Source: Promethearchaeota archaeon (lineage in GTDB: Archaea; Asgardarchaeota; Lokiarchaeia; Sigyniarchaeales; SOKP01). From it: 41,094 bases of DNA. Position numbers and translations under genes: made by a program. The notes beneath the pieces were generated by a model that ran no database searches, was not told the origin of the DNA, and saw only the letters and a program-made list of their open reading frames with translations. Every line of letters starts with the position of its first letter. The first letter of the stretch is position 1. Positions 665 through 40,780 of this stretch are shown one piece after another. Location: contig JAUWHC010000001.1 of the NCBI GenBank assembly GCA_030606095.1, positions 1 through 41,094 of the forward strand, written 5' to 3'.

Positions 665-1201
665 TTACGCTTGGTTTGCGTAAAATATAAGCCACTTTGC
701 CATGGCTTGAAACGATTCGTTTATGTTAATATTTTCTTTTGAAGAAGTGAAAACGCATTGATTGCATTTAGCATTTTGGGCGTATTCATTCGCGATTTTG
801 AAATCAACTTCGTGGTTCGATAAATCCCACTTCATACCCATAAGAATAATAGGCACAAAACCTGCTTTTTTGCGAATAATTTTTAGCCAACCTTGAATTT
901 CTCTGAAAGTGTCGTAATCCGTAATATCAAAGCAAATAAGCGCTCCACTAGCTCCCTTACAATAGTCTGGTAAAAGCTCTCGGAAGCGTTTTTCTCCTGC
1001 GAAGTCCCACAATTGCATTTTTACGGACTCTCCTGTGTCAAGGACTTCTGACTTTGTGTGGAATCCTGCACCTATAGTCATCTTATAGCCTTCTTCAAAT
1101 TTTCCTGTACAATATCGAGTCACCATAGCAGTTTTTCCCACACCACCCGCTCCTGCTACGATCACTTTAAAAATCCATGAACTCATCATTTTTTTAATCA
1201 T
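665..1201 (-). CDS. Ras-superfamily small GTPase (Rab/Ras-like) with divergent G3 and G4 motifs
   Basis: G1 GAGGVGKT; switch I YKMTIGAGF (Rab-like TIGxxF); G3 WDFAGEKRF (compare WDTAGQERF); G4 GMKWD (compare NKxD); G5 SSK. No C-terminal Cys prenylation motif. Confidence 0.85.
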   Translation of the reverse strand: MIKKMMSSWIFKVIVAGAGGVGKTAMVTRYCTGKFEEGYKMTIGAGFHTKSEVLDTGESVKMQLWDFAGEKRFRELLPDYCKGASGALICFDITDYDTFREIQGWLKIIRKKAGFVPIILMGMKWDLSNHEVDFKIANEYAQNAKCNQCVFTSSKENININESFQAMAKWLIFYANQA

Positions 1202-1419
1202 GAATTATTTTTTTTTAATTATAATAAATAAGAATTTGTTTTATAATGTTGTTAATTACAAAACCTAAAATCCAAATCAATCAACTCTTAAAAAAAATTT
1301 AACACTTTTAAAATTATACAAAACTAAAATAAAAAAAAGGTTTTTATAAGATTTAGTTCTATTATTTTTTAGTACTGTATTTTAATAAGTTTTAATAATA
1401 AAGGTTGTGAAAAAGGAGT

Positions 1420-1767
1420 ATTAAAGAAGAAGACATTTGTCCGGTATGTAGTTTTCCGAAAGACCTATGTATATGCGATAGTTTAAGCGCAGATGAACAA
1501 CAAATTATTATCTCTAACGATCGAAGAAAATGGGGGCGTGTGGTTACAGTTATAACCTTCGAAGGAAATATAGACGCTAACTTAAAGGATATCCTTACAC
1601 AAGCCAAAAAGAAATGTGCTTCTGGAGGAACTGTTAGAGGAAATTTAATCGAACTCCAAGGCGACCACAAATTCAAGTTGAAAAAATTTTTAATTGACTT
1701 GGGATTCCCTGAAGAAAATATTATCATTCGACAGGGGATGATGAAGAAACCCTATAGAAAATATTAA
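1420..1767 (+). CDS. Translation initiation factor aSUI1 (eIF1 homologue); start assigned to an in-frame ATT because no canonical start precedes the conserved N-terminus
   Basis: The track ORF (1540-1767) carries the SUI1 core GGTVRGNLIELQGDHKFKLKKFLIDLGF. The same frame is open back to 1411 (stop tga at 1408-1410) and encodes KEEDICPVCSFPKDLCICDSLSADEQQIIISNDRRKWGRVVTVI. This matches the CPxCGLPxELCxC...RRxGK N-terminus of archaeal SUI1. The 5' boundary is uncertain. Confidence 0.8.
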   Translation: MKEEDICPVCSFPKDLCICDSLSADEQQIIISNDRRKWGRVVTVITFEGNIDANLKDILTQAKKKCASGGTVRGNLIELQGDHKFKLKKFLIDLGFPEENIIIRQGMMKKPYRKY

Positions 1768-11633: not shown

Positions 11634-12446
11634 TTATAGACCTTCAATTTTTGTTTCTTTAATGGCTTCTTCTACTTCATAATTTTTGTGAACAACTAGA
11701 TAAAGCGCTTTCACAACTTTTGTAGGATTATCCGCTTGAAATACATTTCTTCCATAGGCAACTCCAGCTCCTCCAACATCTATGGATTGCTTAGTTATTT
11801 CCAAGAGTTCTTTAACCCCCGCCTTAACTCCTCCCGCGATAATTACTGGTGCCATACACCCCTCAACTACTTCACTAAAGGAATCAGGGTCTCCCGTCCA
11901 ATTAGTTTTCACAATATCTGCCCCTAGTTCAGCAGCGACTCTTACTGCTATTTTAACGACCTCAACATCGTTTTCGTTTTCGATATTCTCCCCTCTAGGA
12001 TACATCATAGCCAAAAGGGGCATTCCAAACTCTCGGCATTCACGTGAAACTACTCCTAGAATTTCTAACATTTCTGGATCTGCCTTTGTTCCAATATTAA
12101 TATGCAAAGATACACCATCGGCTCCTAATTTTACTGCGTCTAAAACATTATTTACTAAAACTTTATAATTTGACTTGGGACTTAGAGAGGTTGAACCAGA
12201 TAAATGTAAAATTAAGCCAATATCTGGACCATATCTTCTATGGGCGTATAATGGAATCCCTATATGCCCTAAAACGGCATTTGCGCCCCCTAAAGCTATT
12301 TTGTTTACCATTTCCCCTAAACTACTTTTAATTCCTTTAATAGGGCCTACAGTTAATCCATGGTCCATAGGAACTATGATCGTCTTATTTGTTTCCCTAT
12401 TAAAAATTCGTTCTAATCTAATTCTTTTCCCTATATAACCCGAAAT
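11634..12446 (-). CDS. DhnA-type class I aldolase (archaeal FBP aldolase class IA or ADH synthase AroA'); 5' end extended to an in-frame ATT
   Basis: VPMDHG, LHLSGST, MYPRG, DIVKTNW (Schiff-base Lys region), IAGG and GRNVFQ motifs. The frame is open upstream of the first ATG (12366-68) to stop taa (12450-52). That stretch encodes SISGYIGKRIRLERIFNRETNKTIIVP, the conserved N-terminal segment of this family. Confidence 0.8.
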   Translation of the reverse strand: MSGYIGKRIRLERIFNRETNKTIIVPMDHGLTVGPIKGIKSSLGEMVNKIALGGANAVLGHIGIPLYAHRRYGPDIGLILHLSGSTSLSPKSNYKVLVNNVLDAVKLGADGVSLHINIGTKADPEMLEILGVVSRECREFGMPLLAMMYPRGENIENENDVEVVKIAVRVAAELGADIVKTNWTGDPDSFSEVVEGCMAPVIIAGGVKAGVKELLEITKQSIDVGGAGVAYGRNVFQADNPTKVVKALYLVVHKNYEVEEAIKETKIEGL

Positions 12447-12560
12447 CGATTATTCACCAATTTAACAATGAATTTATAATTTAATTTAAATTAAGAATTA
12501 TATTATATAGTTTACAGCATTTTTTTAATTCTATTAAATTATATAAATCTTTGATTTTTA

Positions 12561-37444: not shown

Positions 37445-40780
<3,336 letters not shown>

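Follow-up and report, generated by a model that had tools for sequence, protein, structure and literature searches.

An AUU codon as the probable start of the aIF1 gene in Lokiarchaeota, behind a conserved Shine-Dalgarno-like motif

The window analyzed here is a 41,094-nucleotide stretch of DNA from Promethearchaeota archaeon (contig JAUWHC010000001.1, assembly GCA_030606095.1), low in guanine plus cytosine (GC; about 29% outside the 23S rRNA gene), and the gene in question is the plus-strand gene for the translation initiation factor aIF1, an archaeal homologue of eukaryotic eIF1, whose translation very probably begins at an ATT codon at position 1420. Translated from position 1411, the frame matches Pfam SUI1 PF01253 at 8e-15 and 55.5 bits (cut-off 25.5) and the NCBIfam model PRK00939/NF002096 at 107.5 bits (cut-off 98). 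The M. jannaschii aIF1 structure 4MO0 is matched with an E of 3.7e-23 over residues 3-102, including the CxxC...CxC zinc knuckle, and human eIF1 chains give weak sequence matches (E about 9e-4). Judged by these matches the protein is a member of the aIF1/SUI1 family, and its binding to the 30S subunit and role in start-codon fidelity are assumed by homology. The features of the start region, all on the plus strand, are the following.

1341-1349, plus strand: TATA-box-like element TTTTTATAA, the predicted aIF1 promoter, preceded at 1320-1339 by an A-rich tract resembling a B recognition element (BRE)
1402-1410, plus strand: Shine-Dalgarno-like motif AGGTTGTGA, equal to the consensus AGGAGGTGA with two central mismatches
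1407-1424, plus strand: out-of-frame mini-open reading frame (mini-ORF) GTG AAA AAG GAG TAT TAA, the TAA overlapping the ATT (ATTAA)
1411-1419, plus strand: purine-rich spacer AAAAGGAGT, read as untranslated, 9 nucleotides (nt) in all main-group loci
1420-1422, plus strand: ATT, the proposed aIF1 initiation codon, on conservation, third-base constraint and coding onset
1420-1767, plus strand: aIF1/SUI1 coding sequence, 115 codons plus the TAA at 1765-1767, placed by profile, structure and homologue matches
1435-1437, plus strand: second ATT, the Ile of the family-wide ICPxC, read as translated and not as a start
1438-1476, plus strand: zinc-knuckle segment CPVCSFPKDLCIC, with Cys codons at 1438, 1447, 1468 and 1474
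1540-1542, plus strand: GTG, the first canonical in-frame codon, read as an internal Val codon and not as a start

The SUI1 frame from 1399 to 1449 reads TAA (1399) AGG TTG (1405) TGA (1408-1410) AAA AGG AGT ATT (1420) AAA GAA GAA GAC ATT (1435) TGT CCG GTA TGT, and the first in-frame ATG, GTG or TTG past the TGA at 1408 is the GTG at 1540-1542, which is why a list of open reading frames (ORFs) yields only a 75-amino acid ORF at 1540-1767. A sequence-only reading of the window had claimed that no canonical start lies between this TGA and GTG 1540 and that a start at 1540 would delete about 40 conserved residues. Reading of the frame confirms the first claim, and the family matches place the loss at 40 residues. 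The same reading took ATT 1420 and ATT 1435 as the sole near-cognate codons; both are present, but AGG 1414 is formally near-cognate too. AGG 1414 was rejected as a start because it is not conserved and many orthologues have a further in-frame stop, TAA or TAG, past the TGA and within the 9-nt spacer. The length of the run proves nothing by itself, as 40 codons free of ATG, GTG and TTG are expected by chance in this genome with P about 0.23, and the evidence is instead the missing canonical start in ~100 independent assemblies. The window has 57 stop-to-stop ORFs of at least 100 codons, and in these the first canonical start follows the upstream stop by a median of 7 codons, compared with 43 for SUI1; only antisense shadow ORFs exceed the SUI1 value.

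The comparative set derives from a protein search giving about 150 close homologues, for which the DNA was then fetched, and comprises 136 unique loci, with 103 of a Loki type defined by the zinc knuckle CxxCS[FY]P and 33 not of this type, duplicates being removed before counting. Eighty loci come from species-representative Promethearchaeota (= Lokiarchaeota) genomes and encode proteins with 75-100% amino-acid identity to that of the window, and a metagenome scan contributes about 40 further main-group loci. The 80 genome loci and the window have no ATG, GTG or TTG anywhere in the stretch that runs from the upstream stop to the first Cys codon, and 80 of 80 read AGGTTGTGA, 9 nt and then ATT AAA GA. 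GA. GA. ATT TGY with no insertions or deletions, a layout that is identical in the metagenome loci. Over the Loki type as a whole the canonical start is missing in 98 of the 103 loci, and the other five each have a GTG inside the upstream motif. A sequencing or assembly error or a pseudogene is excluded by the recurrence of the layout in 80 genomes and about 40 metagenome contigs and by purifying selection on the N-terminal codons. As a side observation, metagenome-assembled genomes labelled Thor-, Odin-, Hod- and Hermodarchaeota (L016, L017, L025, L027, L031, L040, L050, L055, L057, L059, L066, L069 and L075) contain aIF1 genes whose products are 75-89% identical to that of the window with an identical leader, as does L007, labelled Nanopelagicaceae bacterium, which suggests taxonomic mislabelling or contaminated bins.

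In 107 unique main-group sequences the codon at the position of ATT 1420 is ATT 103 times and ATC 4 times, with no ATA and no ATG. On a neighbour-joining tree of these sequences, which reach up to 28% nucleotide divergence, its third base changes once (to ATC), compared with 7-29 changes at the other conserved Ile codons and a median of 13 over the whole set of conserved degenerate codons. The rest of the gene uses ATT and ATA for Ile at about equal frequency, whereas ATA is absent from this position in the main group. ATG is found here in 0 of the 103 Loki-type loci, although a single T-to-G change would create it, and its avoidance holds throughout sequences reaching down to 51% amino-acid identity; the ATT is retained even in L087, a relative of 59% GC. 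A 3-nt periodicity of variability, with variable positions at 8, 11, 14, 17 and 23, extends from the first ATT onward in the 82 unique main-group loci, the changes being restricted to third codon positions. The NCBI annotation of L085, made with the Prokaryotic Genome Annotation Pipeline (PGAP), uses the equivalent ATT as the start codon.

The spacer upstream of the ATT varies in sequence with no coding periodicity and contains an in-frame TAA or TAG in 40 of the 82 main-group loci. A homopolymer error in the run of five A residues at 1410-1414, which would place GTG 1407 in frame, was rejected because the spacer length is constant while its sequence varies, and a mutated or recoded Trp codon at TGA 1408, suggested by database proteins with the N terminus 'MWKKSIK...', was rejected on the presence of the TGA in all loci and on these in-frame stops. 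The preceding stretch AAAGGTTGTGA is essentially invariant in the main group (82 unique genome loci), having two single-locus changes, at -18 and -14, and AGGTTGTGA is likewise found in about 40 more metagenome loci with the single variants AGGTAGTGA and AGGTCGTGA. In sister clades the corresponding place is taken by a perfect GGAGGTGA or GAGGTGAT 7-8 nt before ATT or ATA: L084, L115, L137 and L138 read (A)GGAGGTGA or GAGGTGAT, N7/8 and then ATT AAA (ATA AAG in L138). L085 reads AGGTTGTGA-N9-ATT, and L086 and L087 have GAGGT, N8/9 and then ATT. With a canonical archaeal 16S tail assumed, the main motif is predicted to form a duplex of -7.9 to -9.3 kcal/mol and the perfect versions one of -14 to -15.8 kcal/mol. 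The motif was rejected as a repeated regulatory site, as exact AGGTTGTGA occurs once in the window and one-mismatch matches are at chance level.

Translation thus very probably starts at ATT 1420, judged from the comparative sequence evidence. The claim of the sequence-only reading that aIF1 starts at a codon other than AUG, GUG or UUG is supported by the conserved ATT, the motif at a fixed distance, the onset of coding and the in-frame stops upstream, and the sequence error that could have undone it is excluded by the aligned orthologues, which have the same arrangement and conserve both the ATT and the lack of a canonical start. Concerning the sister clades, the single metagenome-assembled genome JBHLOC01 (isolate DZ3M.111) has two aIF1 genes, L067 with the main-group AGGTTGTGA-N9-ATT and L084, 61% identical, with a perfect GAGGTGAT-N7-ATT, which could be a paralogue pair or the product of a mixed bin.

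The TATA-like element is 80-90% conserved in an ungapped alignment of 77 unique loci and is placed 66 nt from the GTG in the distant L082 as in the window, with 10 nt more in L136. From the usual archaeal TATA-to-start distance, transcription is predicted to start near A1371 within the conserved TTTTTAGTACTG, giving a leader of about 49 nt, so that the aIF1 mRNA would be a leadered transcript. An Rfam scan of the leader gave no match, and RNAalifold finds no conserved RNA structure over the start, returning only a weak hairpin (-2.6 kcal/mol) without covariation inside the coding sequence at about 1448-1468. Synonymous change is strongly suppressed at 1438-1470 (aIF1 codons 6-16, TGT...TGT AGT TTT CC. 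AAA), with 0-4 parsimony steps compared with the gene-wide median of 13, and the hairpin is placed just downstream; the suppression could reflect an initiation-region constraint or an RNA element. The gene is flanked by a divergent Arf/Ras-like small GTPase gene (665-1201, minus strand), syntenic with aIF1 even in the 64%-identical clade of L082. In 29 loci (flanks of L030, L041, L047 and others) the canonical ATG of this divergently transcribed gene is itself preceded at 8-9 nt by (T)ATGTGAT, matching the aIF1 motif in its GTGA(T)-N8/9 geometry. The start region of the GTPase gene in the window differs and reads ATG ATT AAA AAA ATG ATG.

Loki-type aIF1 genes are monocistronic and placed beside the small GTPase, with a 5-residue acidic N-terminal extension and an AUH (AUU, AUC or AUA) start. 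Outside the Loki type a canonical start is present in 30 of 33 aIF1 loci, usually an ATG 3-6 codons before the Cys codon with GGAG(G) upstream, and gene callers restricted to ATG, GTG and TTG return full-length proteins for these lineages. Two of the three exceptions, L086 and L087, are GC-rich Promethearchaeota. The third, L141/L142 (Ga0190363_1013161 and Ga0209410_1000053; Cys at 401), encodes the aIF1 CPICGLPKDICQCE in an unrelated lineage of 35% GC, reads AGGAGG-N9-ATA TCC TTA GAA AGA TGT and lacks any in-frame canonical start codon (ATG, GTG or TTG) ahead of its zinc knuckle; its ATA may represent an independent origin of a non-AUG aIF1 start.

For the Loki-type gene, in contrast to those lineages, gene callers limited to ATG, GTG and TTG produce truncated products of 69-91 amino acids starting at an internal TTG, GTG or ATG, and NCBI entries begin 'MKDDDIC' or 'MCPLCS', with Met set on one or other of the two Ile codons. 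ENA and Logan proteins (P0001-P0003, P0005, P0007, P0009, P0012, P0013 and P0043) begin 'MW...', several of those in ENA with 'MWKKSIK', corresponding to window positions 1405-1410, and these N termini are probably artefacts of TTG-TGA translated by genetic code 4. Database entries for lokiarchaeal aIF1 are consequently systematically wrong at the N terminus, leaving an essential gene truncated or mistranslated.

Other placements of the start bear on the same stretch of DNA. Initiation at the second ATT (1435), or an artefact or pseudogene making only the 75-amino acid product from GTG 1540, would agree with those NCBI annotations that start there ('MCPLCS...') and with the many gene callers that output the truncated form. 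This is extremely unlikely, as the K-D/E-D/E-D/E codons between the two ATTs vary almost solely at third positions, every archaeal aIF1 keeps the Ile of ICPxC, about 100 independent assemblies agree and the zinc-knuckle codons are under purifying selection. The Cys columns of the knuckle are invariant or nearly invariant in the protein alignment, and variation at third positions indicates that the segment is translated. The aIF1 proteins outside the clade (Thermoplasmata, Nanoarchaeota and others) read M-x-(x)-I-C-P-K-C, identifying the second ATT as a codon translated to Ile. Its distance from the motif is 24 nt, and it varies between ATT, ATA and ATC with 7 changes on the tree. By the sequence comparison the start is therefore ATT 1420 rather than ATT 1435. 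A leaderless or near-leaderless mRNA would instead require the AT-rich block 1391-1402 to be the real TATA box, with transcription starting at or next to the ATT. The partly conserved TTTTAATAATAAA about 24-26 nt upstream of 1420 is suitably placed for this. Leaderless mRNAs are frequent among archaea, and the scarcity of Shine-Dalgarno sequences described for Lokiarchaea (PMC7531240, PMC12993045) would also favour it. However, the better BRE/TATA combination (1320-1349) lies upstream, with TTTTTAGTACTG at the expected start distance, and is kept into distant clades, and a leaderless transcript gives no reason for the invariant G-rich 9-mer, or for the perfect GGAGGTGA of the sister clades, between TATA and start. 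Leaderless initiation is also strongly dependent on a 5' AUG, and for the aIF1 mRNA it is considered very improbable.

The GTG at 1407 is invariant in the main group, where the mini-ORF it opens has 5 codons in 78 of 82 loci, 14 codons in three ATC loci and 2 codons in one, and shows no coding pattern in its frame. Among relatives the GTG is less regular. In the P0041-like clade it is in frame in L082, is shifted out of frame in L101 by a 1-nt deletion that brings in an in-frame TAG and is replaced by GGG in L091, with the aIF1 ORF intact in all three; it is absent from L086 and L087 and in frame in L084, L081 has ATG AAA TAA directly upstream of GTT ATT AAA, and the GTG of the perfect-SD clade falls within GGAGGTGA itself. 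GTG 1407 is therefore not the start, because it drifts in and out of frame or vanishes among relatives with an intact aIF1 ORF, and the simplest reading of the sequences is that it is conserved as part of the ribosome-binding motif. The idea that ATA occurs only where an in-frame GTG is present, suggested by L082 and L088, was dropped because L091 and L101 have ATA with no canonical in-frame start. Termination-reinitiation coupling at overlapping stop and start codons occurs in archaea and bacteria, and would here involve a start at the out-of-frame GTG 1407, or at the in-frame TTG 1405-TGA, followed by reinitiation at the overlapping AUU. The invariance of the GTG, the 5-codon ORF with its TAA overlapping the ATT in 78 of 82 loci, the in-frame ATG AAA TAA of L081 ending 3 nt before the ATT and the GTG of L082, in frame and at the same 66-nt distance from the TATA element, all agree with such coupling. 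It is nevertheless improbable, since the GTG has no ribosome-binding site of its own, with AGGT abutting it, the mini-ORF has no coding pattern, the three ATC loci lose the TAA so that the upstream ORF grows to 14 codons, and the GTG is missing from L086 and L087, is GGG in L091 and belongs to GGAGGTGA in the perfect-SD clade. A programmed +1 frameshift from GTG 1407 into the aIF1 frame, for example at TAT TAA A, would superficially resemble prfB in combining an invariant GTG, a stop in the GTG frame overlapping the entry to the aIF1 frame and an SD-like sequence upstream. It is scarcely credible given that no slippery site is conserved, the codon before the TAA being TAT, CAT or AAT by locus and none of them re-pairing with AUU; that the ATC loci have no stop at that point; that the GTG of sister clades is in frame, shifted by indels or absent; and that coding periodicity begins at the ATT, with none upstream.

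With initiation placed at ATT 1420, its regulatory meaning has to be set against a second gene of the window that appears to start at ATT.

11634-12458, minus strand: ADH-synthase/DhnA-type aldolase, with ATT at 12446-12444 and GGTGA at 12458-12454, 7 nt upstream

The aldolase frame reads TAA TCG ATT TCG GGT TAT...; only with a start at ATT 12446 does the protein match its family profile from residue 5, the first ATG at 12368 dropping 26 family-conserved residues. The nearest relatives are called as truncated 244-amino acid proteins, and in a separate lineage (L172) the gene reads GGAAGTGA-N7-ATT. Across 120 clusters of homologues most begin 'MSGY' (MSGYIGK, from ATG), a few start at TTG or GTG and a minority at ATT; some of the 'MSGY' starts come from JGI, ENA and Logan, where the callers accept only ATG, GTG and TTG. 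A truncated aldolase call was not accepted in every case as evidence for a non-canonical start, as L171 has a GTG skipped by the caller. AUU starts thus appear to be tolerated elsewhere in the lineage, always with a good Shine-Dalgarno sequence in the cases seen. On this basis AUU 1420 could be a start with no regulatory role, AUU, AUA and AUC being ordinary SD-assisted starts in Lokiarchaeia and the aIF1 codon having been fixed by chance. The aldolase of the window, with no canonical start for 26 conserved codons, and that of L172 both speak for this explanation. The start codon of the aldolase turns over, however, whereas that of aIF1 is never ATG across the whole clade (0 of 103 Loki-type loci) and changed once at its third base. 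Such lasting avoidance of ATG, which holds in sequences with as little as 51% amino-acid identity, points to selection for a weak start. A purely tolerated AUU at aIF1 is on balance rather unlikely.

The account preferred here, to which a probability of roughly 0.55 is given as a whole, is that aIF1 is made by Shine-Dalgarno-guided initiation at AUU 1420 under negative feedback from aIF1 itself. The small ribosomal subunit would be placed on the leadered mRNA by AGGTTGTGA (1402-1410), the motif presumably pairing with the 16S tail, with AGGUUGUGA as a candidate pairing stretch. Initiation would then occur 9 nt downstream at AUU 1420-1422, probably read by Met-tRNAi, and give the 115-residue aIF1 with a full zinc knuckle. 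Because aIF1 makes the initiation complex reject non-AUG codons, its synthesis should be self-limiting, falling when aIF1 is abundant and destabilises non-AUG complexes and rising when it is scarce. S. solfataricus 30S subunits bind both AUG and AUU mRNAs without aIF1 and only AUG mRNAs with it (reviewed in PMC4705826), and P. abyssi aIF1 has a fidelity function, proofreading initiation complexes (PMC6237735). The lack of ATG at this codon over deep divergence, compared with the free turnover of the start codon in the control gene, adds to the plausibility of autoregulation, a loop proposed on the model of infC and eIF1.

A number of observations weigh against this account. Pairing of the motif with 16S rRNA is argued from a canonical archaeal tail and from the sister clades with a perfect SD, the window containing no 16S gene (none lies in the 37 kb upstream of the 23S gene within the window), and a plain Shine-Dalgarno role leaves the two invariant mismatched T residues of the motif unexplained. 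The spacing of 8-9 nt past GTGA is at the long end of the range for other genes of the window, several of which have AGGT, GGTG or GAGG 3-9 nt before their starts, and according to the reviews cited above (PMC7531240, PMC12993045) Shine-Dalgarno sequences are not prevalent in Lokiarchaea. Low synonymous variation is a general feature of the first ~17 codons, so that the constraint seen at the ATT could partly be one that acts on the whole 5' end of the gene's coding stretch. Finally, AUU is not unique to aIF1 and may be merely a tolerated start codon, which weakens the case for a specifically regulatory role.

Two further features lie elsewhere in the window. On the plus strand at 37447-40779 is a complete archaeal 23S rRNA gene of 3333 nt, compared with 2987 positions in the model, implying insertions. 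Also on the plus strand, 66-121 gives a sub-threshold match to the tRNA model Rfam RF00005 (27.5 bits, gathering threshold 29), in which 56 nt extend over the full model; ARAGORN makes no call, and the match could be a degenerate, truncated or unusual tRNA.

Compared with canonical archaeal aIF1 (M. jannaschii 4MO0, Thermoplasmata L090), the Loki type has the zinc knuckle and SUI1 domain in common and differs in its gene, as the canonical genes have an ATG 2-5 codons before the first Cys codon and a GGAG(G) Shine-Dalgarno sequence in place of the AUH start, and in L090 the gene is inside a ribosomal-protein operon whereas Loki-type genes stand alone by the small GTPase. Coupled termination-reinitiation is resembled in the 5-codon upstream ORF whose TAA overlaps the ATT in most main-group loci, but this ORF is not conserved as coding, is absent or in another frame in sister clades and begins at a GTG with no ribosome-binding site of its own; prfB-like +1 frameshifting is not matched for want of a conserved re-pairing shift site. 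The closest parallel in design is bacterial infC, encoding IF3, which is translationally autoregulated through its AUU start (Butler, Springer and Grunberg-Manago 1987, as cited in PMC4705826). In both cases the gene of a fidelity factor itself starts at AUU behind a Shine-Dalgarno sequence, with AUH conserved over many species, and the expected logic is the same, low factor relaxing stringency and yielding more factor; lokiarchaeal aIF1 also shows ATC and ATA variants. The two share a conserved start other than AUG, GUG or UUG and not homology, aIF1 being of the SUI1 family and unrelated to IF3 in fold and ancestry, with an archaeal Met-tRNAi delivered by aIF2. The motif of aIF1 is moreover an imperfect Shine-Dalgarno sequence with two invariant mismatches, and its feedback is proposed by analogy; on that analogy the aIF1 design is one that works like infC with no homology to it.

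Eukaryotic eIF1 is autoregulated through the poor context of its AUG (Ivanov et al. 2010 and Martin-Marcos et al. 2011, cited in PMC6237735 and PMC4705826). Here the protein is homologous, the fidelity function is the same, the start site is likewise suboptimal and the Asgard archaea are the closest archaeal relatives of eukaryotes; the eukaryotic codon, however, is an AUG whose weak flanking context is read in scanning, whereas in Lokiarchaeota the codon itself is non-AUG, an ATT positioned by an SD-like motif at a fixed distance. PMC6237735 (2018) discusses the eIF1 loop and mentions nothing similar for archaeal aIF1, and full-text searches and reviews of 2020 and 2026 gave no report of a comparable aIF1 start or self-limitation in archaea. 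Start-site selection in Lokiarchaea is described in reviews as poorly understood, and the aIF1 loci provide clean natural cases of SD-assisted non-AUG initiation. A broader proposal, doubtful at present, is that Lokiarchaeota run a homeostat of start-codon stringency in which aIF1 is made only from AUH and its steady-state level settles where AUU starts backed by an SD sequence are only just allowed; other genes, the aldolase at 12446 among them, would then be free to drift to AUU starts. As aIF1 is the eIF1 homologue and Asgard archaea are closest to eukaryotes, the arrangement bears on the origin of the eukaryotic loop. If ancestral to Asgard, it would be a precursor in which the weak codon was later swapped for a weak context, and initiation fidelity would be controlled by the same principle in all three domains. 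A conserved AUU/AUA/AUC start of aIF1 across an entire Asgard phylum would fill the archaeal gap beside IF3 with its AUU and eIF1 with its weak context.

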